64,000 nt of DNA, taken from positions 11,308 to 75,307 of the forward strand of contig WQWC01000005.1 in the NCBI GenBank assembly GCA_009785525.1, in the 5' to 3' direction. Numbering within the stretch: the stretch's first letter is position 1; each line of letters starts with the position of its first letter. The DNA comes from Oscillospiraceae bacterium. GTDB taxonomy: Bacteria; Bacillota; Clostridia; Oscillospirales; Oscillospiraceae. The position numbers and the translations under genes are program-made. Positions 1,965 through 63,187 of this stretch are shown piece after piece. The notes under the pieces are model-generated. The model made no database searches. It saw nothing but the letters and a program-made list of their open reading frames with translations, and was not told where the DNA came from.

Positions 1965-2726
1965 ATGATATCAAGCAAATTATTTTCAGTAAATACATTT
2001 AACAAAAATTCACTACAAAAAGCTAAAGACTGCGGTTTTGGTCTTGAAGTAGAAGAATATTTAATGATGTACAATGAAGATGAAATTGAAGAAAAGCATG
2101 AGTATGTGCCTACGCTAATGGGTGGATTTACTAAATTTTCTTTTCACGGGACAATAGTGAACAGAGATATTACCGAAATCAATAAGATATCCGATGAAGA
2201 ATTGATAGCAATATACAATAAATCTTATGAGTATGCGTGTTTACACAATATAAGCAGGATTGTATATCATGCAAACTATTCAGTCGATTTTGAAACAAAA
2301 TCATCTTGGCTTAATAGACAAACTTTGTTTTGGAAATATTTTTTACAAGACAAACCGCCATCTGCTAAAATTTATATTGAAAACCTTATAGACGAAACAC
2401 CCGAGATAATGTCACAGTTATGCGATGATGTTGGCGATTCTCGATTCAAGATATGCCTTGATACAGGGCACGCTTGTTGTAATTCATCAATCAACACAAC
2501 TGAATGGATAAAAGTATTGGGCAAGCGGATTGAGCACGTGCATTTGCATAATAACGATAAACTTTCAGACAGGCATTGGTCTTTAGGAAAGGGTATTTTA
2601 GATATGGCGGAAATAATGAGGGATTTACTGGAATATACCGATGCGCACACATTTGTGTTGGAATGTGATTTTGAAAGTAGTGTGCAATGGCTTCGACAAA
2701 ATAATATCTTGCTTATAAACGAGTAA
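1965..2726 (+). CDS. Xylose-isomerase-like TIM-barrel protein (sugar phosphate isomerase/epimerase family)
   Basis: The HVHLHNNDKLSDRHWSLGKGILDM segment resembles the metal-binding His/Asp region of AP-endonuclease-2/xylose-isomerase-like TIM barrels. The gene is visibly AT-rich compared with its neighbours. Confidence 0.55.
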   Translation: MISSKLFSVNTFNKNSLQKAKDCGFGLEVEEYLMMYNEDEIEEKHEYVPTLMGGFTKFSFHGTIVNRDITEINKISDEELIAIYNKSYEYACLHNISRIVYHANYSVDFETKSSWLNRQTLFWKYFLQDKPPSAKIYIENLIDETPEIMSQLCDDVGDSRFKICLDTGHACCNSSINTTEWIKVLGKRIEHVHLHNNDKLSDRHWSLGKGILDMAEIMRDLLEYTDAHTFVLECDFESSVQWLRQNNILLINE

Positions 2727-2756: not shown

Positions 2757-4079
2757 ATGAAAAAGCCGCTGGTTGCGATTGTCGGGCGGCCTAATGTGGG
2801 CAAATCGACACTGTTTAATAGGATAGTCGGAATGCGCTTGGCTATTGTTGAAGACACGCCTGGAGTCACGCGGGACAGGCTGTACGCCAAGTCCGACTGG
2901 AATGGACGGGAGTTCGATATAGTCGATACTGGCGGCATTGAGCCTCGCACTGACAATGAGATATTGCTGTTCATGCGCGAACAGGCGAATATTGCCATCG
3001 AAATGGCGGATGTAATCGTCTTTGTTACCGATTTTACCACCGGAGTCACGGCGAATGACAACGATGTCGCGGTCAGTTTGCGAAAATCTGGAAAGCCGGT
3101 GATTCTTGTTGTGAACAAAATGGATTCCACCGGCGCGACGAATCCTGATATATATGAGTTCTACGCACTGGGGTTGGGCGAGCCTATTTCGGTATCCGCC
3201 GCACACGGGCACGGCACCGGTGATTTGCTGGATGAGTGCGTAAAATTCTTTCCGCCTGAATCGGACGAGGAGGAAGAGGATGGCGCTATTAAAGTCGCGG
3301 TGATAGGCAAGCCGAACGCCGGGAAATCTTCGCTTATCAACAAGATTCTGGGGCAGAAGCGGGTTATCGTCAGTGAAGCTGCGGGTACGACTCGTGACGC
3401 TGTTGATACGCCTTTTGAAAACGAACACGGCAAGTACGTGTTTATCGACACTGCTGGGATACGCCGCAAGTCGAAAATTGATGGCAGGATTGAACATTAC
3501 AGCGTTTTACGCGCACAGATGGCCATAGAACGCGCCGACGTGTGCATTATAATGATAGACGCACGTGAGGGTGTTACCGAGCAGGACACAAAGGTCGCCG
3601 GACTGGCCCATGAAGCCGGAAAAGCCAGTATAATCGCTGTCAACAAATGGGATTTAATTGAAAAAGAAACCAACACAATGGACAAAATGCGTGCTGAGGT
3701 CTTACGCGACCTGAGCTATATGACATACGCGCCGACGCTGTTTATTTCCGCCTTGACCGGACAGAGGGTGGATAAATTATTCGAGTTGATCAATTACGTG
3801 GACGCCCAAGCCGCAACGCGGATATCGACGGGTATGTTAAACGACCTGCTGGGCGATGCGATGGCAAGAGTACAGCCGCCAACCGACAGAGGAAAGCGGT
3901 TGAAAATCTACTATATGACCCAAGCCTCAGTGCGCCCACCGACATTTGTATGCTTCTGCAACAATGCTGAGTTGTTTCATTTTTCGTATAGGAGATATCT
4001 GGAGAATCAGATCAGGGACGTGTTCGGCCTGGAAGGGACTCCCGTGCGGATGGTGATACGAGAACGCGGGGATGATTAG
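2757..4079 (+). CDS. der: Ribosome-associated GTPase Der/EngA (tandem GTPase domains)
   Basis: Two G1 motifs, GRPNVGKST and GKPNAGKSS, plus a KH-like C-terminus. RBS AGGAGG upstream. Confidence 0.95.
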   Translation: MKKPLVAIVGRPNVGKSTLFNRIVGMRLAIVEDTPGVTRDRLYAKSDWNGREFDIVDTGGIEPRTDNEILLFMREQANIAIEMADVIVFVTDFTTGVTANDNDVAVSLRKSGKPVILVVNKMDSTGATNPDIYEFYALGLGEPISVSAAHGHGTGDLLDECVKFFPPESDEEEEDGAIKVAVIGKPNAGKSSLINKILGQKRVIVSEAAGTTRDAVDTPFENEHGKYVFIDTAGIRRKSKIDGRIEHYSVLRAQMAIERADVCIIMIDAREGVTEQDTKVAGLAHEAGKASIIAVNKWDLIEKETNTMDKMRAEVLRDLSYMTYAPTLFISALTGQRVDKLFELINYVDAQAATRISTGMLNDLLGDAMARVQPPTDRGKRLKIYYMTQASVRPPTFVCFCNNAELFHFSYRRYLENQIRDVFGLEGTPVRMVIRERGDD

Positions 4080-4792: not shown

Positions 4793-5812
4793 TTGAAAGT
4801 ATCGGTTTTCGGAAGCGGCGCGTGGGGCACAGCCATCGCCATGCTTCTGCATGAGAACGGACATGACGTGACACTGTGGTCAAGATCTGCCGATAAGGCT
4901 GAGTCTTTGCGCAAAAATAGGGAAAACCCGCTATTAAAAAGCATAAAAATACCGCAGGAGCTTAACATAACATCCGACAAAGAATCTGCTACCGGCGGAA
5001 TTGACGCTGCGGTAATTGCCGTCCCGTCGTTCGCCCTGCGGGATACGGCGGAAGTTTTACGCAACAAGATTCCGAAAAATTGCGTCGTTATATGCATGTC
5101 TAAAGGTATTGAAAAAGATACGTCTAACCTCTTTTCCATAATTTTAAAGGACACGCTCGGCGAAAAAACGCCTATAGCATCGGTATCGGGTCCAATGCAC
5201 GCGGAGGAAGTCGCGAAGCGCATACCAACAGCTTGCGTTGCGGCTTCTGACGATTTGGAGGTCGCCGGATATGTGCAAGATTTGCTGATGAACGAATATT
5301 TACGTGTATACACCAGTACCGATGTCACTGGTGTCGAACTCGGGGCTGCGCTGAAAAACGTCATCGCGCTGTGTGCCGGGATATGCGATGGCCTCGGCTT
5401 CGGCGACAACACGCTGGCAATGCTGATGACGCGCGGACTGGCTGAAATGGCGGAGCTCTGCGTCAAAATGGGCGGGAGGAAAGAGACGCTTGCGGGTCTC
5501 GCCGGACTCGGTGACTTGATCGTTACATGTATGTCACACCATTCGCGCAATCGCCGCGCCGGGGTGATGATCGGACAAGGAATGTCCGCGCAAGAGGCAA
5601 TGGCTCAAGTCGGCGCAGTCGTGGAAGGCTATTTTGCGGCGAAGGCGGCGTTTGAATTGGCAAAATCCTCAAACGTAGAAATGCCGATTTGCTGCGAGGC
5701 GTACAGGGTTTTGTACGAGGGGAAAGATCCGCTGACGGCCATGCGTGAGCTGATGAGCAGAGAGCGGAAGATTGAGACAAAATCGGGCGAGGAGACATGG
5801 GTGAGCGGGTGA
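4793..5812 (+). CDS. gpsA: NAD(P)H-dependent glycerol-3-phosphate dehydrogenase
   Basis: N-terminal GSGAWGTA Rossmann motif, then GVELGAALKNVIA and EGYFAAKA motifs. TTG start with a GAGGAA RBS. Confidence 0.92.
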   Translation: MKVSVFGSGAWGTAIAMLLHENGHDVTLWSRSADKAESLRKNRENPLLKSIKIPQELNITSDKESATGGIDAAVIAVPSFALRDTAEVLRNKIPKNCVVICMSKGIEKDTSNLFSIILKDTLGEKTPIASVSGPMHAEEVAKRIPTACVAASDDLEVAGYVQDLLMNEYLRVYTSTDVTGVELGAALKNVIALCAGICDGLGFGDNTLAMLMTRGLAEMAELCVKMGGRKETLAGLAGLGDLIVTCMSHHSRNRRAGVMIGQGMSAQEAMAQVGAVVEGYFAAKAAFELAKSSNVEMPICCEAYRVLYEGKDPLTAMRELMSRERKIETKSGEETWVSG

Positions 5813-5813
5813 T

Positions 5814-5840
5814 GAAAAAACCGCCTCTTTACGAGGCGGT
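5814..5840. terminator. Hairpin terminator between convergent gpsA and the 3-TM gene
   Basis: AAAAAA-CCGCCTC-tttac-GAGGCGG. The U-run is on the minus-strand transcript, so it best fits termination of the 5855-6406 gene. It is weaker as a terminator for gpsA. Confidence 0.6.
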
Positions 5841-5854
5841 GGTGAGTATATCGT

Positions 5855-6406
5855 TTATCTTAACAAATTAACCAACCGTGGTACAAATATGTAAAGAACT
5901 ATGAACGCGACATTTAGTACCGAAATAAAGCCGAAGAAGTGTTTAGGTTTTGAAAAGAATGAGTTATCCTTGTCGCTTGTTCTAAGCCGATCAATCATTT
6001 TGGAACAGAGATAGATAAAAACCCATACTGTATTAAGTACCAATAATCCTAAGAACAGCATCTGATAAGATTCCGCTTGCCCTCTAACAGCTCTCTCAAG
6101 TCTATCAATACGACCATGGATTGATGTTAGATAGATGCTCATGATGGCAATAACCGCAGCAATCAGTATTCCTATAACAGTTAAAAGATGCGGAAGAGCT
6201 CTCTCAGCAGATTCCGTCGCATTAGTAGCCTTTGTTTTCGCTTCGCACGCTTGTTTTTCAGCAAATTTTGCAATTTCTTCGGCTTTTTCGACTGTTAGTG
6301 ACACGGCCAAAAGTCTAGTGAAGAAATTCTCGCTTTTGGCAGGGCGAAGTGGACTCCTAGCCTTTTCCTCTTCAAAAAATTCATGATTAAGGCTATCAAA
6401 AGACAT
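5855..6406 (-). CDS. Hypothetical membrane protein: about 70-aa charged helical N-terminus plus 3 predicted TM helices; candidate toxin/effector
   Basis: Hydrophobic stretches LLTVIGILIAAVIAIMSIYLTSI, MLFLGLLVLNTVWVFIYLCSKMI and FFGFISVLNVAFIVLYIFVPRLV. AT-rich. Lies 45 nt downstream of the Panacea-like gene on the same strand. Confidence 0.6.
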   Translation of the reverse strand: MSFDSLNHEFFEEEKARSPLRPAKSENFFTRLLAVSLTVEKAEEIAKFAEKQACEAKTKATNATESAERALPHLLTVIGILIAAVIAIMSIYLTSIHGRIDRLERAVRGQAESYQMLFLGLLVLNTVWVFIYLCSKMIDRLRTSDKDNSFFSKPKHFFGFISVLNVAFIVLYIFVPRLVNLLR

Positions 6407-6451
6407 ATCTGCTCACCTCTATTTCTCTCTTGATAAGGGCAGTCAATTTAT

Positions 6452-7414
6452 TTAGTCATCCAAGCCTAAAAATGCATCAATATTATTCCTTGCTCGGCTT
6501 AACACAAATTCAGCAACTGGGAAGTCAACACTTTTTCCGTTGTACTCGTCTATACGCATTTTAATGGCCTCAGTATAATGTTTCCTTATTGCTCTCTTTA
6601 ATTCATCATTGTCGTCCGCCTTGCTTAGCCTTTTAATATTATCTCCTATCTCCTTAAGGCGATTATCATAAGCGGTTTGGCCTTCGCTTGTAATGTTTGA
6701 ATAACCTCGTATCCCGCACAGTGTGGCAACCTGATCAACAAGGTTGCTGGAAATGCCACCGTTAGTGTAGTCAATTTTTGCAACTCCACAAACCTCAAAA
6801 TTACGCATTTCATCGAGATCACTTTTCGTAATTTCGTTGAAGCCACTAACACCAAACTCGTACTTTTTAAAGTGCTCACGGATTTTATCTGCGGGAATCA
6901 CTTTGAAATTGTTCTCATCATATTTAGGTGCATACGTAACCCACAGAGAGTCATTTTTACAAAAACGTATTGTTTCACGCCTATCCTTAGTCCAAACCTT
7001 TTGATAGACCTGCTCCATAACTTCAACAATCTCAGGATGTGCATATTCCAATACGTCTAATGCATCAGTCCATAACTTTTCTTCTATAAGACCATAGTCG
7101 AACTTCTCTGCTATTTTATAAATTGAATGGACAACAGCGCCGCACTCATGGGCACGAATAGTTCCTCCAAAGATAGGAAAACCACACTCTGATTTTGAAA
7201 GAACCATTCCAAAAGTGAGGTAAAGAACCTTATGCAGTTTGGCATAAGTCATATAGCAATTACTTATTTCTTTTTCCGATGCGTTTTTAGCTTTTTTCTT
7301 GTCCGCTTCGTCAATCCCTCTGTTAATGAACCATGCGGCATACCATTCTGCCCCTTGAGGCAGATCATTGTCTGTTTCAAGTAACGTTTCCTGTCCCTTT
7401 TTAGTTGTTTGCAT
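6452..7414 (-). CDS. Panacea (DUF4065, SocA/GepA-like) domain protein with an unknown ~150-aa C-terminal domain; candidate antitoxin
   Basis: YAKLHKVLYLTFG ... FPIFGGTIRAHECGAVVHSIY resembles the DUF4065 core pattern KLqKLLYyaqG ... plf ... AWkyGPVvpevY. The match was made by eye only. AT-rich gene. Confidence 0.55.
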   Translation of the reverse strand: MQTTKKGQETLLETDNDLPQGAEWYAAWFINRGIDEADKKKAKNASEKEISNCYMTYAKLHKVLYLTFGMVLSKSECGFPIFGGTIRAHECGAVVHSIYKIAEKFDYGLIEEKLWTDALDVLEYAHPEIVEVMEQVYQKVWTKDRRETIRFCKNDSLWVTYAPKYDENNFKVIPADKIREHFKKYEFGVSGFNEITKSDLDEMRNFEVCGVAKIDYTNGGISSNLVDQVATLCGIRGYSNITSEGQTAYDNRLKEIGDNIKRLSKADDNDELKRAIRKHYTEAIKMRIDEYNGKSVDFPVAEFVLSRARNNIDAFLGLDD

Positions 7415-7449
7415 TCATACAACCCTCTCTTATAGAGGGCATAGCCCCC

Positions 7450-7470
7450 ATAATTGCCAGTGGCAATTAT
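7450..7470. promoter_or_regulatory. Perfect 21-nt palindrome (candidate operator) overlapping the -10/TSS of the island promoter
   Basis: ATAATTGCCA-G-TGGCAATTAT, 10-bp perfect arms. It overlaps the TATAAT hexamer at 7466-7471. Confidence 0.6.
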
Positions 7471-7494
7471 ACCACTTTTCTGTGTTAAAGTCAA
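7466..7494 (-). promoter_or_regulatory. Sigma-70-type promoter for the Panacea-like/3-TM operon
   Basis: On the minus strand: TTGACT (7494-7489), 17-nt spacer, TGg-TATAAT (7471-7466). Near-consensus with an extended -10. Confidence 0.65.
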
Positions 7495-7581
7495 GAAAAA
7501 ATTTCAACTTTAATTTAATGTTTTTTGTTAATATGAAACATCATCCTTATCTCTATATTCCCCCAACCCACTATTTTATGT

Positions 7582-7610
7582 TTGATTATTACTTCACACT
7601 GAGGTATAAT
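7582..7610 (+). promoter_or_regulatory. Candidate promoter for murD
   Basis: TTGATT (7582-7587), 17-nt spacer, TATAAT (7605-7610). The -10 ends only 6 nt before the murD ATG. Confidence 0.45.
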
Positions 7611-11249: not shown

Positions 11250-12497
11250 ATGAACATCACAACTAAAATACAAACCCTAGCAACCCAAGCAATGGAAGAC
11301 ATTACCGCCCAATTCAGGAAAATAGACGAGATTGCACAAACAAACACGCAGAAAGTCCTTGCCGCATTCCAAAAACACCGAGTGTCCGACGTCTGCTTCA
11401 ACGAAACGACCGGCTACGGCTACAACGACCGAGGGCGCGAGACGTTGGATTTGCTGTTTGCCGACGTGATGGGTACCAATTCCGCGCTGGTGCGGGCCGG
11501 ATTTGTCAACGGTACTCACGCAATAACATCGGCGTTGTTCGCCGCGCTGCGTCCCGGGGATACGATGCTGTCGGCAACCGGCGCGCCGTATGATACACTA
11601 CGCGGAGTCATAGGCATAACAGGTGAACACCGGGGATCACTGCGGGAGTATGGCATCCAATACGCGCAAGTGGAGCTTGACTCCACCGGAAAGCCTGATT
11701 TACAAGCTATCGAACAGGCAATCGACTCTGACAGCAGCACATCTGCCGTATTTATCCAACGTTCGCGCGGATATTCGCAGCGCCCGTCGTTGACCGTGGC
11801 GGAAATCGGTAAAATTGCCGACCTCGCGCACAGTAGAAATCTCACGGTTATCGTGGACAACTGCTACGGTGAGTTCACCGAGACGTTGGAGCCCGGCGAT
11901 ATCGGCGCGGATCTGATCGCTGGGTCGTTGATTAAAAATCCAGGCGGCGGGATTGCTCCATCCGGTGGATACGTTGCGGGTGAGGGAGAGCTTGTGGACG
12001 CGGCAGCGGCTCGCCTGACAGTCCCCGGAATCGGCGCGGAATGCGGTGCGACGCTCGGCGTCAACAGACTGCTGTTTCAGGGATTGTTTATGGCTCCGCA
12101 TGTCACGGCACAGGCGATGAAAACTGCCGTTTTCTGCGCAAGATTGTTTGAACTCTTGGGCTATAAAACATCCCCTAGCTCATTGGATACACGGTCGGAT
12201 ATAATACAGACGGTGGAGCTTGGCTCGCCGGAGTTGCTGCGGAAATTCTGCCGCGGAATCCAGCTCGGTGCGCCGGTAGACTCGTATGTCACGCCGGAGC
12301 CCTGGGATATGCCGGGGTATGATTGCCCAGTTATTATGGCGGCGGGAGCGTTCATTCAAGGTGCGTCGATAGAACTCTCCGCCGACGCCCCGTTGCGTGA
12401 GCCGTACAGGGCATACCTCCAAGGCGGCCTGACGTTTGAATCCGGCAAGCTGGGCATAATGCTCGCGGCAAGTTCGATGGAGGATAGAGATACATAG
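11250..12497 (+). CDS. PLP-dependent Met-gamma-lyase-like protein of the YnbB / 'aluminium resistance' family
   Basis: The N-terminus (FQKHRVSDVCFNETTGYGYNDRGRETLD) and the length match this family. Call from memory of family signatures. Confidence 0.7.
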   Translation: MNITTKIQTLATQAMEDITAQFRKIDEIAQTNTQKVLAAFQKHRVSDVCFNETTGYGYNDRGRETLDLLFADVMGTNSALVRAGFVNGTHAITSALFAALRPGDTMLSATGAPYDTLRGVIGITGEHRGSLREYGIQYAQVELDSTGKPDLQAIEQAIDSDSSTSAVFIQRSRGYSQRPSLTVAEIGKIADLAHSRNLTVIVDNCYGEFTETLEPGDIGADLIAGSLIKNPGGGIAPSGGYVAGEGELVDAAAARLTVPGIGAECGATLGVNRLLFQGLFMAPHVTAQAMKTAVFCARLFELLGYKTSPSSLDTRSDIIQTVELGSPELLRKFCRGIQLGAPVDSYVTPEPWDMPGYDCPVIMAAGAFIQGASIELSADAPLREPYRAYLQGGLTFESGKLGIMLAASSMEDRDT

Positions 12498-12520
12498 TGC
12501 AACAAAGGATGGAGGCAATT

Positions 12521-13063
12521 ATGATAAATCACATCGGCAGTCAACCTATAACCACTGACAGGTTGACTTTGCGCAGATTTACGGCAGATGACAGTAAAGA
12601 CGCTTTTGAAAAATGGACAAGTTCCTATGATTCAAGGTTTTGGTATCCTCCGCATGAAAGTATTGAAGAAACAGAACAAGAGATCAACGAATATGTTAAA
12701 AATTATTACAATGCGGATTGGTACATGTGGGCCGTTGTCTTTGAAGATGAGCTTATTGGTTTGGTCTGCGGAAATGAGATAAACGAGGATATCAGGAGCA
12801 TCTGTATCGGATATTGTATAACAAAATCTTGCTGGAATAGAGGAATAGCCACTGAAGCGAGTAAAGCCCTTATAAATTATTTTTTTGACATTGGTTTTAA
12901 CAGAGTTTTTTCACATCATAACCCACTGAATCCGTCGAGCGGAAGAGTTATGCAAAAATGCGGCATGACCTTTGAAGGGAAAATCAGAGGCGGCTCAATG
13001 TTCGCGGGGGAGATTTGTGATTGTCTGCAATATTCAATTTTGAAAGAAGATATTACCGGATAA
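12521..13063 (+). CDS. GNAT family N-acetyltransferase (RimJ/RimL-like)
   Basis: LTLRRFTADD start, then the acetyl-CoA-binding core WNRGIATEA. GGAGG RBS 5 nt before ATG 12521. AT-rich. Confidence 0.8.
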   Translation: MINHIGSQPITTDRLTLRRFTADDSKDAFEKWTSSYDSRFWYPPHESIEETEQEINEYVKNYYNADWYMWAVVFEDELIGLVCGNEINEDIRSICIGYCITKSCWNRGIATEASKALINYFFDIGFNRVFSHHNPLNPSSGRVMQKCGMTFEGKIRGGSMFAGEICDCLQYSILKEDITG

Positions 13064-13203
13064 CAATTGTCCGACTCCGCGAATAAGCGTTGCATGAGGT
13101 GATACTTACGCCTAGCGGCTTTCGCAACATGTCCCGAAACCTTAGTGTTTGCCTCATTTTTGAAGTTTCTTTTCTCAGACACCTCTGATTAAAATATTTT
13201 TAC

Positions 13204-13232
13204 TTGACATCCGTTATGGAATCGTGTAATAT
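13204..13232 (+). promoter_or_regulatory. Promoter of the trp leader
   Basis: TTGACA (13204-13209), 17-nt spacer, TAATAT (13227-13232). Confidence 0.7.
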
Positions 13233-13239
13233 ACCTTAT

Positions 13240-13530
13240 AGTTTAATATCAATCTCAAACCGTTGAAGTGGAGATAACAGCAGTATATGCGCATACAGAG
13301 AGTCCGGGCAGCTGAGAGCCGGATTGAAATGCAGATTGCTAAATGGACCGCTGAGGGCATGGTCAAAAGCGTTTGATACGCTGAGTACTCCATGACGTGA
13401 CGCATACGTCAGTTGCGAGGGATATGTTTGTATCCTGCAGAGAGTACGGGTTTTTCTCGTAAATCAAGGTGGCACCGCGGATAAACTTATTCGTCCTTGA
13501 TAAAGCATAATGCTTTATCAAGGATTTTTT
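13240..13530 (+). promoter_or_regulatory. T-box riboswitch leader, probable Trp specifier (UGG)
   Basis: AGAGA stem-I motif near 13297. Candidate specifier AAA-TGG-A at 13344-13346. Conserved T-box sequence AAATCAAGGTGGCACCGCGG at 13461-13480. Terminator with a 14-bp stem at 13494-13524 plus T6. Confidence 0.85.
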
Positions 13531-13552
13531 GCATTTGAAGGGAAGATAGAAA

Positions 13553-13633
13553 ATGTATCAGATGAAAAACAATCATCCAAACGACAAGCGAGAACTTATC
13601 TTTCGATGGCGGATGTGGCATCGGTTTACCTGA
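13553..13633 (+). CDS. Speculative 26-codon mini-ORF with two Trp codons (MYQMKNNHPNDKRELIFRWRMWHRFT)
   Basis: ATG preceded by GAAGGGAAG. Two TGG codons lie 3 codons apart. Located between the T-box terminator and the permease start. May be fortuitous. Confidence 0.2.
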   Translation: MYQMKNNHPNDKRELIFRWRMWHRFT

Positions 13634-13669
13634 TACGTCAAAATAAATAAGTTTTGGAGAATATAAAGA

Positions 13670-15076
13670 ATGCTACAAAAAATAAAAGTACCCTATATTG
13701 GAAGCGGTTTTATGGCGCTGATCGCGGTCATTATTATGGCGGCGCGCCCCATCGCTGATTTGGACGACACAGGACACATTATGCTCGGAGCTATCATACT
13801 TGCTCTTTGTATTTGGATTTTTAAGCCCTTTAAGCTGACTTATGCCATAGGCGGGCTGCTTCTGGCTTTGTTTGGACTGATCGTTGAACTTCCCCCAACG
13901 GTTATCTTTTCCGGATTCACGCAAACGGCGCTCTGGACTTTAGTACCTGCGTTTTTCTTTGGGTATACACTTCAGAAAACCGGACTCGGGCGCAGGATCG
14001 CGATGGCGGTTATTAAAGTGTGCCGCCCTACGTATCTTTCGCTTATTTTCGCCTGGATTCCGATCGGCATGATCTTGTCTATCCTGACTCCGGCGACAAC
14101 TGTACGTGTGGCAATTATGCTCCCGATCGCCGTTCAGTGCGGTGAACTATTTGACCTAAAAAAAGGATCGAAGGGCAACTCGTTGATTTTATTAACTTCA
14201 TTTGCGATGGCACTCATTCCGGGGTCAGGCTGGCTGACAGGTGTGATCTGGGGTCCGTTTATCCAGGGGCAAATGGCGAACGCCGGTATAGACCTTACCT
14301 TTGGAGATTGGCTTGGAGTATTGCTTGTGCCTGTTATCATAGCGACGATTTTATTAGTCGTGGGTGGCTTGCTTCTTTTAAAGCCAGAAGAAAAACTCTC
14401 CAAAGAAGCGATTGAAGCGGTAAAAAAACAACCCATGGAAAAAATGGGGAAAAACGAAATGATATCCGCCGTGATATTAATATCGGTATTTGGATTGTCC
14501 TTAACTGCTAACATTCACGGCCTTTCCACCGCTATCATTTGCATTGCAGCTATGCTGTGTTTCTTTGTGTTCGGTGTGTTAGAAACCAAAGATTTCAATG
14601 CCGCAGCAAACTGGAATCTGGTCATTTTTATCGCTATGGCGTTCAGCCTGGGTCCTATCTTTTCTGCGACCGGGATTTCTGACTGGCTGTCGGGGATTGT
14701 TGTGCCTGCGCTTGCGCCGATTGCTGGCAATCCTTGGTTGTTTGTGTTTTCTGCCACGGCTTTTATGTTTCTTTGGAGTTTGGTCGATGTCGCCATGTTT
14801 CTTCCGACAATCTCAATCATGGCGCCGATACTCCCCAAAATACAAGAGGCGTATCAGATCAGCCCCTTCGTTTGGCTCGCTGTCTTTATACTTGCAGGCA
14901 ATGCTTTCTTTTTGGCATACCAGAATATGTGGGCTGTTATGAGCCGTTCTATCGCGGAAGACAGGGCGTGGACGAATAAGCACCAAAGTAGATACGGCCT
15001 GATTTATTTTGCGGCGTGCCTGATTGCTCTGGTCGCGGCAATCCCCATGTGGATCAATGCCGGGCTATTCGGATAA
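13670..15076 (+). CDS. Ion-transporter-superfamily (DASS/ArsB-like) anion permease, first gene of the T-box-controlled trp operon
   Basis: 468 aa and highly hydrophobic, with an estimated 12 or more TM segments. Central amphipathic linker KPEEKLSKEAIEAVKKQPMEKMGKNE. The two-halves architecture is typical of DASS/citrate-transporter-like permeases. Confidence 0.7.
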   Translation: MLQKIKVPYIGSGFMALIAVIIMAARPIADLDDTGHIMLGAIILALCIWIFKPFKLTYAIGGLLLALFGLIVELPPTVIFSGFTQTALWTLVPAFFFGYTLQKTGLGRRIAMAVIKVCRPTYLSLIFAWIPIGMILSILTPATTVRVAIMLPIAVQCGELFDLKKGSKGNSLILLTSFAMALIPGSGWLTGVIWGPFIQGQMANAGIDLTFGDWLGVLLVPVIIATILLVVGGLLLLKPEEKLSKEAIEAVKKQPMEKMGKNEMISAVILISVFGLSLTANIHGLSTAIICIAAMLCFFVFGVLETKDFNAAANWNLVIFIAMAFSLGPIFSATGISDWLSGIVVPALAPIAGNPWLFVFSATAFMFLWSLVDVAMFLPTISIMAPILPKIQEAYQISPFVWLAVFILAGNAFFLAYQNMWAVMSRSIAEDRAWTNKHQSRYGLIYFAACLIALVAAIPMWINAGLFG

Positions 15077-62884: not shown

Positions 62885-63187
62885 TATTTTAATATTTCTA
62901 ATTGCATTGAAGAGAAATAGTACCTGCTTATTCAAAGTGCAGAGAGGGCCGGGTTGGTGTAACGGCTTGTTTGGATGAACGGAGAACTCGTCTCGGAGCT
63001 GTGCGCGGAACGTGAGATATTTTTACTTTCACCATTATGCCGCACCGGAAGCCCGCCGTTATACGGGACGCGATATTGGGTTACAGTATCGTTAGTGAGT
63101 GTACGCCGCCGTTTAACCGGCCGCGTGAATTCAGGTGGTACCGCGAGGCTTTAAGCTCCTCGTCCTGATTATAGGACGAGGCTTTTT
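62885..63187 (+). promoter_or_regulatory. T-box riboswitch leader, probable Leu specifier (CUC)
   Basis: AGAGA at 62941. Candidate specifier GAA-CTC-G at 62987-62989. T-box sequence AATTCAGGTGGTACCGCGAGG at 63128-63148. Terminator CCTCGTCCT-gattat-AGGACGAGG plus T5 at 63158-63187. Confidence 0.85.

Follow-up and report, generated by a model that had tools for sequence, protein, structure and literature searches.

The window analysed here, a 64-kb stretch (64,000 nucleotides (nt)) of contig WQWC01000005.1, comes from an uncultured member of the Oscillospiraceae, probably of termite-gut origin. Between gpsA and murD it carries a low-GC insertion of two minus-strand genes, and sequence comparisons identify this insertion as a probable toxin-antitoxin (TA) module of the PanAT type with an unusual layout. 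Gene 1 encodes the putative PanA antitoxin, in which a Panacea domain is followed by a C-terminal extension, and gene 2 encodes the putative PanT toxin, a small membrane protein. We consider the island likely to be a horizontally acquired, self-contained PanAT operon of type II, a class defined by growth inhibition by the toxin and direct neutralising binding by the antitoxin, which the literature reports for other PanAT pairs. An original prediction for this locus, made from the DNA sequence alone, had joined the two genes in one module, assigned a Panacea domain to gene 1 with a C-terminal part matching nothing recognisable, and seen three strongly hydrophobic helices in gene 2. Each of these points was upheld by the comparisons described below.

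Pairing of the two gene families was examined in 12 informative loci (the window, L001, L003, L004, L005, L006, L007, L008/L009, L040, L041-43, L044 and L045). A Panacea gene was found directly upstream of the gene 2 relative in 12 of 12, always in the order antitoxin then toxin. In the close relatives L001, L003, L004 and L005, this upstream gene is a gene 1 homologue with the C-terminal extension; the fifth close relative, L002, is uninformative, its upstream sequence being limited to 91 nt. At every distant-relative locus examined (L006, L007, L008/L009, L040, L041-43, L044 and L045) the gene directly upstream is PF13274-positive and encodes 144-174 amino acids (aa). Several of these loci lie in phage-related DNA: the Acinetobacter puyangensis pair (L008/L009) is in a prophage-like region beside holin and lysozyme genes, L044 is a Helicobacter rodentium prophage, and L045 is the Streptococcus satellite phage Javan212. 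In Javan212 (MK448365.1, ~11340-11798; L045:1690-2148) the Panacea gene is an unannotated 152-aa open reading frame (ORF; PF13274, 31.9 bits) overlapping the beginning of QBX08031.1, an annotated membrane protein of 353 aa that resembles the distant gene 2 relative P0040. Because the Panacea ORF is unannotated, the annotation of the record has missed a PanAT-like pair in this phage satellite. The pair in L004 is preceded (L004:1399-3322) by the gene of a 175-aa membrane protein and, overlapping it, that of a 467-aa P-loop protein with weak matches to AAA_28 and MobB; PADLOC matched neither protein, and the two genes may form another small accessory module.

Broader searches extended this set little. 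Word-indexed protein searches returned only the gene 1 and gene 2 proteins and one relative, and a search with a 44-row alignment (8000 candidates) added little. Scans of one viral-contig and two metagenome-contig collections confirmed no locus, a weak negative since the known Joint Genome Institute (JGI) contigs L001 and L004 were also missed. In tblastn searches of phage and plasmid sequences, none of gene 1, gene 2 and P0012 gave a match, and only P0040 reached phage records.

The Panacea identity of gene 1 is settled by comparison with its relatives. The L001 orthologue scores 34.6 bits against Pfam PF13274, over the cut-off. In hhalign, the gene 1 clade aligned with the PF13274-positive PanAs of L006, L007 and L008 with a probability of 97.5% (E 5e-12, 120 columns, residues 55-179), and BLASTP of gene 1 against the L006 PanA gave an E of 5e-13. 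Gene 1 also matched phrog_1281 (PHROG family 1281; E 2.5e-10), and reached only 13.7 bits against the NCBIfam SocA equivalog, whose cut-off is 190. By these alignments, gene 1 carries a divergent Panacea domain. Ernits et al. 2023 (PMC10440598) describe the Panacea fold as compact, with seven helices (alpha1-alpha7) and two strands (beta1-beta2). The helix 'AEWYAAWFINRGIDEA' at residues 22-37, ahead of the aligned core, is probably part of the domain. Core motifs are recognisable in changed form: gene 1 reads KLHKVLYL, and its AHECGAVV stands in place of the usual family sequence AW-x-x-GPVV. The motifs KLHK-LY-L and AH-CG occur in gene 1 and in the PanAs of L006, L040 and L041, not in those of L007 or L008. 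The first three PanAs, which stand beside long-clade toxins (defined below), are the closest to the gene 1 domain, a pattern that fits co-divergence of the antitoxin and toxin genes. The remaining ~140 aa of gene 1 end in a conserved motif, EF-x-LSRA-R/K-NNI-D/E-A, in the four orthologues. This extension had no match in Pfam, NCBIfam, PADLOC, PHROGs or the PDB, a PDB sequence search with gene 1 was likewise empty, and the PanAs that accompany longer toxins (144-174 aa for the PanA) lack the extension.

The three transmembrane (TM) helices of gene 2 were called from Kyte-Doolittle means of 2.3-2.7 over 19-residue segments, and the TM helix 1 block is the most conserved in the family. An AlphaFold2 (AF2) model of the protein built with 44 family sequences (mean predicted local distance difference test score (pLDDT) 82) has helices at residues 28-104, 110-142 and 154-182, the first of which is predicted to extend without a break from the cytoplasmic region into TM helix 1. 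Foldseek with this model against the PDB and BFVD returned nothing under E 0.5 and no holin match, and a PDB sequence search with gene 2 gave coiled-coil noise only. A profile search of 1.84 billion representative proteins recovered six close relatives including gene 2 itself (183-246 aa, E <= 7e-29), hereafter the short clade, and 38 distant relatives (307-474 aa, E 2e-9 to 1e-3), hereafter the long clade. The distant relatives carry the gene 2 membrane module in their C-terminal 180 residues, with the conserved blocks LPNMLT-x-LGIFVAII-x-AVVACYL and LLMGHI...FLLLYLISK, and hhalign aligned the short with the long clade at a probability of 99.6% (E 2.7e-24, 150 columns). Two features are confined to the long forms and missing from the short clade: 150-250 residues that make up an N-terminal domain, and a loop rich in Cys that joins helices 2 and 3. 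The loop (C-x-C ... C-x-x-C ... C) occupies alignment columns ~545-650 in the long-clade toxins P0008-P0045, many of which also have a fourth hydrophobic helix that is absent from the short clade. Ten long forms were scanned and contained no Pfam domain.

The long clade leads to a characterised group of toxins. The Panacea domain owes its name to Kurata et al. 2022 (PNAS, PMC8832971), who validated nine toxins neutralised by PanAs; membrane toxins account for three of the nine. One toxin in that study, the PanT of Helicobacter sp. 13S00482-2, has an N-terminal coiled-coil region and C-terminal TM helices and depolarises the E. coli membrane without SYTOX Green entry (PMC8832971). In Dataset S1 of the same paper it is assigned to toxin cluster T4 and flagged as a verified TA pair, and the T4 rows examined there have the order A|T with gaps of -20 to +22. 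Two pairs in our set appear in that table: P0048 (WP_097078505.1) with its upstream PanA (WP_097078504.1) is listed as T4, A|T, gap 22 nt, identical in L009, and the pair of H. rodentium ATCC 700285 overlaps by 20 nt in L044, as in its T4 entry of "-20". The long clade aligned with T4 sequences in hhalign at 97.8% (E 1.3e-12), and BLASTP matched P0040 to the H. rodentium T4 toxin over nearly its full length (E 8e-14). On this homology chain, gene 2 is best regarded as a remote T4 relative of the same architecture and not as a proven member.

The window pair resembles T4, and the Helicobacter sp. 13S00482-2 PanAT in particular, in its Panacea antitoxin, its antitoxin-first order and its short gap (T4 pairs having a short gap or an overlap). 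By hydropathy and the AF2 model its toxin, like theirs, has a helical, coiled-coil-like cytoplasmic part and then C-terminal TM helices, and the homology chain runs to two T4 sequences. Unlike T4, the window toxin has 183 aa as against ~290-470 aa, with neither the N-terminal globular domain nor the Cys-rich loop that long relatives have between helices 2 and 3, and the antitoxin is twice as long owing to its 140-aa C-terminal extension. The original prediction had called the module an undescribed one. The TA reading stands; "undescribed" does not, since Panacea antitoxins with membrane-depolarising toxins are reported in PMC8832971 and gene 2 appears to be a remote T4 branch.

Other Panacea systems share parts of this design. 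In the PanATs of E. coli STEC O31 (T3) and Bartonella (T12, node D11), Panacea likewise neutralises a membrane toxin with a charged N-terminal and a hydrophobic C-terminal part, in Bartonella directly and as a standalone domain; unlike the window pair, their PanAs have no C-terminal extension, and SYTOX Green enters through the large pores that their toxins form. Multidomain PanAs (HTH-, PAD1-, Phd-C- and ZBD-Panacea; PMC8832971, PMC10440598) resemble gene 1 in joining Panacea to an accessory domain. They differ in that the named accessory domains are N-terminal, whereas the gene 1 extension is C-terminal and matches no profile or structure; Kurata et al. describe N-terminal PanA extensions only (HTH, PAD1; PMC8832971). 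In the multidomain PanAs tested so far the accessory domain neutralises the toxin, and the HTH type is proposed to control transcription (PMC8832971, PMC10440598). Ernits et al. 2023 (PMC10440598) conclude that standalone Panacea neutralises directly and multidomain PanAs through the added domain, that either end of a PanA can carry a neutralising element, and that Panacea itself may be a sensor. With SocAB of Caulobacter the window pair has the antitoxin domain family in common, PF13274 being present in SocA and gene 1. SocA, the founding Panacea antitoxin, is a proteolytic adaptor for a replication-blocking toxin.

Several results weigh against identifying the pair as a PanAT module. Gene 1 itself aligns with PF13274 at 18.3 bits (E 0.0045; residues 60-158, profile positions 1-112 of 113), under the gathering cut-off of 25.7 bits; the L004 homologue has no Pfam match whatever, and the family motif W-x-x-G-P-V reads H-E-C-G-A-V in gene 1. 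Single-sequence AF2 of gene 1 reached a pLDDT of 39 and was unusable beyond a low-confidence hint of three long helices at residues 243-316. Direct comparison is weaker than the homology chain: the short clade aligned with three T4-type sequences at only 84.3% (E 7e-6) and failed against single T4 sequences (3.6% and 8.5%). Part of the signal joining the short clade, long clade and T4 lies in the coiled-coil and hydrophobic-helix region, where composition can inflate scores. The T4 membership of the validated Helicobacter toxin, the experimentally studied relative, was taken from the published table and not from a sequence compared here, and the function proposed for the short clade derives from homology. 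The palindrome over the promoter (Table 1) belongs with these points, as no comparable one was found upstream of nine homologous operons, the two closest included.

We propose that one promoter would drive gene 1 and then gene 2. Gene 2 would be a PanT toxin in which a long cytoplasmic helix runs straight into the first of three TM helices; by homology with T4, free toxin would enter the cytoplasmic membrane, probably as an oligomer, and dissipate the membrane potential, and growth would stop. Gene 1, a PanA with a Panacea domain and a 140-aa helical C-terminal extension, would bind the toxin directly and hold it harmless, as other PanAs do. In the short clade the toxin would have lost the N-terminal globular domain of the long relatives and the antitoxin would have gained its extension, which may help to hold the cytoplasmic helix of the toxin. 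We infer this role for the extension from Ernits et al. 2023, according to whom it is the added domain that does the neutralising in multidomain PanAs. In both clades, short and long, the two proteins add up to a similar total length, which suggested that the extension might be the detached N-terminal domain of the long toxins. At the sequence level this was rejected: a 5-row extension alignment was compared by hhalign with the short clade, T4 sequences, the long clade as a whole and its N-terminal regions by themselves, with probabilities of 0.1-0.3%, and neither these N-terminal domains nor any profile or solved structure searched showed detectable similarity to the extension. In a more speculative version, which we hold only as a tentative suggestion, the short clade is a re-partitioned PanAT, in which the toxin is a bare helix and three-helix membrane core, the new C-terminal helical domain of the antitoxin neutralises it and perhaps binds the palindrome, and Panacea is freed to sense a trigger. 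If this were true, the extension would be a new C-terminal Panacea-associated domain, and the short clade a natural experiment separating sensing from neutralisation in PanA.

The signals around the genes are those of an independent unit. Both ORFs are intact and separated by 45 nt, and both have homologues in other DNA, which marks them as real genes. A predicted promoter, a palindrome and a predicted terminator of its own (Table 1) make the unit self-contained. The promoter was assigned to the two-gene operon from its consensus match alone, and promoter-like sites in the region are no more numerous than in shuffled sequence, leaving only the quality and position of the 7494..7466 site informative. 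The palindrome, which covers the -10 box, is unique in the window (expected occurrences 0.01) and is a reasonable operator candidate at which the operon may be repressed. The original prediction had inferred a strong promoter with an autoregulatory palindromic operator. Promoter and palindrome are present; the operator role did not gain support, because the palindrome is not conserved in homologous operons and no DNA-binding domain was recognised in gene 1 with Pfam and NCBIfam. The ribosome-binding regions of both genes contain a 17-nt direct repeat (6425-6441 and 7425-7441, 76% identity), TGCCCTTATCAAGAGAG and TGCCCTCTATAAGAGAG on the coding strand, which may be due to chance; in the upstream copy, CCCTCT could pair with AGAGGG over the gene 1 Shine-Dalgarno sequence.

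Table 1. Positions in the window of the island, its two genes and their predicted signals, and the flanking genes.
Feature	Position	Strand	Basis or remark
Inserted low-GC island	5813..7570	no strand	gpsA stop codon to native murD promoter
Gene 1, panA-like antitoxin gene (320 aa)	6452..7414	-	ORF
Panacea domain core of gene 1 (residues 55-179)	6878..7252	-	hhalign, BLASTP
C-terminal extension of gene 1 (residues 180-320), unrecognised	6455..6877	-	conserved in L001, L003, L004, L005
Gene 2, panT-like membrane toxin gene (183 aa)	5855..6406	-	ORF
TM helix 1 of gene 2 (residues 74-92)	6131..6187	-	hydropathy mean 2.68; after conserved AERALPH-L/I-LTV
TM helix 2 of gene 2 (residues 116-134)	6005..6061	-	hydropathy mean 2.27; conserved block NTVW-x-F-x-YLCSK
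TM helix 3 of gene 2 (residues 157-175)	5882..5938	-	hydropathy mean 2.51; conserved N165
Predicted sigma-70-type promoter (TTGACT, 17 nt, TG-n-TATAAT)	7466..7494	-	11/12 consensus matches and extended -10 TG
Perfect palindrome ATAATTGCCA-G-TGGCAATTAT	7450..7470	no strand	10+1+10, 100% complementary, 21 bp, over -10 box
Predicted intrinsic terminator	5820..5840	-	stem of 8 pairs (6 G-C), loop of 5, then TTTTT; downstream of gene 2
gpsA	4793..5812	+	Pfam E 2e-56
murD	likely ATG start 7617, ORF end 9038	+	Mur ligase domains (Pfam)
Native murD promoter (TTGATT, 17 nt, TATAAT)	7582..7610	+	promoter-like site; right flank, outside island

The pair may serve in phage defence or help to stabilise a mobile element. 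The location of relatives in prophages and a phage satellite makes a role in phage defence plausible by analogy, and the pair may be mainly a phage-triggered abortive-infection switch and not a classical addiction module with a labile antitoxin. In such a switch, Panacea would sense a phage cue while the extension holds the toxin, and sensing would free or activate the toxin. We regard this as possible, at well below even odds; it would refine the PanAT explanation and does not exclude it. It draws on the proposal of Ernits et al. 2023 of a Panacea sensor with neutralisation by added domains (PMC10440598), on gene 1 being multidomain while the PanAs paired with longer toxins are standalone, and on the A. 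puyangensis, H. rodentium and Javan212 relatives, which lie in elements where defence genes are common. Against it, PADLOC gave no match for either protein or for the neighbours in L004, L007 and L040, so that the abortive-infection role envisaged in the original prediction found no backing there; the window island stands alone among housekeeping genes, outside any defence island, and no trigger is known for any PanAT system (PMC10440598).

We think it unlikely that gene 2 is instead a harmless membrane protein of a mobile element, such as a superinfection-exclusion or holin-like protein, with gene 1 a phage-associated Panacea protein of the GepA type serving another role and the pair the remnant of a prophage cassette. 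Relatives do occur in prophages, one of them beside a lysis cassette, one long relative has a weak, sub-threshold likeness to holin and XhlA profiles, gene 2 matches the PADLOC PycTM model at an E of only 0.04, and Kurata et al. 2022 (PMC8832971) report that verification failed for some of their candidate PanATs. However, the strict pairing across Firmicute-like contigs and Acinetobacter, Helicobacter and Streptococcus elements is the signature by which TA pairs are defined, and one T4 member has been shown to be toxic and neutralised (PMC8832971). Furthermore, the window island has no other phage genes, integrase or attachment-site repeats, and the fold searches found no holin match.

The gene pair was acquired horizontally, and the low-GC island is not native to the gpsA-murD locus. 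The 1.75-kb island (5813-7570) has a GC content of 0.389, compared with 0.529 for gpsA and 0.527 for murD, and is the lowest-GC 1.76-kb stretch in the window (mean 0.496, standard deviation 0.028), lying 3.8 standard deviations under the mean; 0.3% of windows are as low. The AT-rich, two-gene, minus-strand island of the original prediction was confirmed in its coordinates, its intergenic gap and its GC content. The closest genome in the species collection is a termite-gut Oscillospiraceae metagenome-assembled genome, L010, in which gpsA is 79% and murD 83% identical to those of the window. The gpsA-murD junction is kept in L010; similarity stops at the gpsA stop codon and restarts at ~7572, at a murD promoter block common to both upstream of murD. 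The L010 gap holds an unrelated 182-aa minus-strand ORF of normal GC (L010:2713-3261, -) with no Pfam match, and tblastn of genes 1 and 2 against this gap found nothing. With another gene occupying this junction in the closest genome, we conclude that the island was acquired, as the original prediction had supposed for an insertion here. In the plsY-gpsA gap, L010 has an apparent extra gene of ~270 aa (corresponding to the lower part of the automatically called ORF L010:487-1635, +) that is absent from the window; with different genes in the two gaps, both junctions around gpsA vary among close relatives. L004, the sole close relative with enough flank to compare, has neighbouring genes that differ from those of the window. 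Neither an integrase, a transposase nor any other mobile-element gene was found in the window island, which also lacks flanking direct repeats, and an Rfam scan gave no match in or near it. An imperfect 14-nt inverted repeat (86%; 5854-5867 and 7524-7537) lies near the island ends and may be due to chance.

That the pair is an old, vertically inherited gpsA-murD component of the Oscillospiraceae lineage, its low GC reflecting gene-specific bias, is very improbable: L010 also has a minus-strand gene between gpsA and murD, but that gene is unrelated, and clade-wide vertical inheritance is excluded because neither gene stands beside gpsA in any of the 30 related loci and the family is rare, with six close gene 2 relatives in 1.84 billion proteins.

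Elsewhere in the window, a second low-GC insertion (GC 0.337), of a single gene, lies at 1965-2726 (+) between a gene for a 437-aa protein (614-1927) and der (2757-4079), two genes that are only 8-40 nt apart in several related genomes (e.g. L012, L019, L021 and L026). Its product is a TIM-barrel protein of 253 aa that resembles xylose isomerase (PF01261, E 1e-15). GC is also low (0.39-0.42) at ~12500-13800, after a block at 0.55-0.58. A T-box leader at 62898-63170 (+; RF00230, 104.7 bits, E 5e-22) is the only Rfam match of the window above the gathering score.

The pair is a rare, rearranged architectural variant of the described Panacea family. For annotation, two "hypothetical proteins" can be named as a putative PanA-PanT membrane TA pair, and the island can be flagged as acquired DNA. 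The gene 2 family appears to consist of consistently Panacea-linked membrane toxins whose range goes far past the T4 cluster as published and takes in prophages and a phage satellite. Its short clade, in which a minimal putative toxin is paired with an antitoxin bearing an undescribed C-terminal domain, would be a convenient system in which to ask which part of the antitoxin binds the toxin and what Panacea senses, a question left by Ernits et al. 2023.

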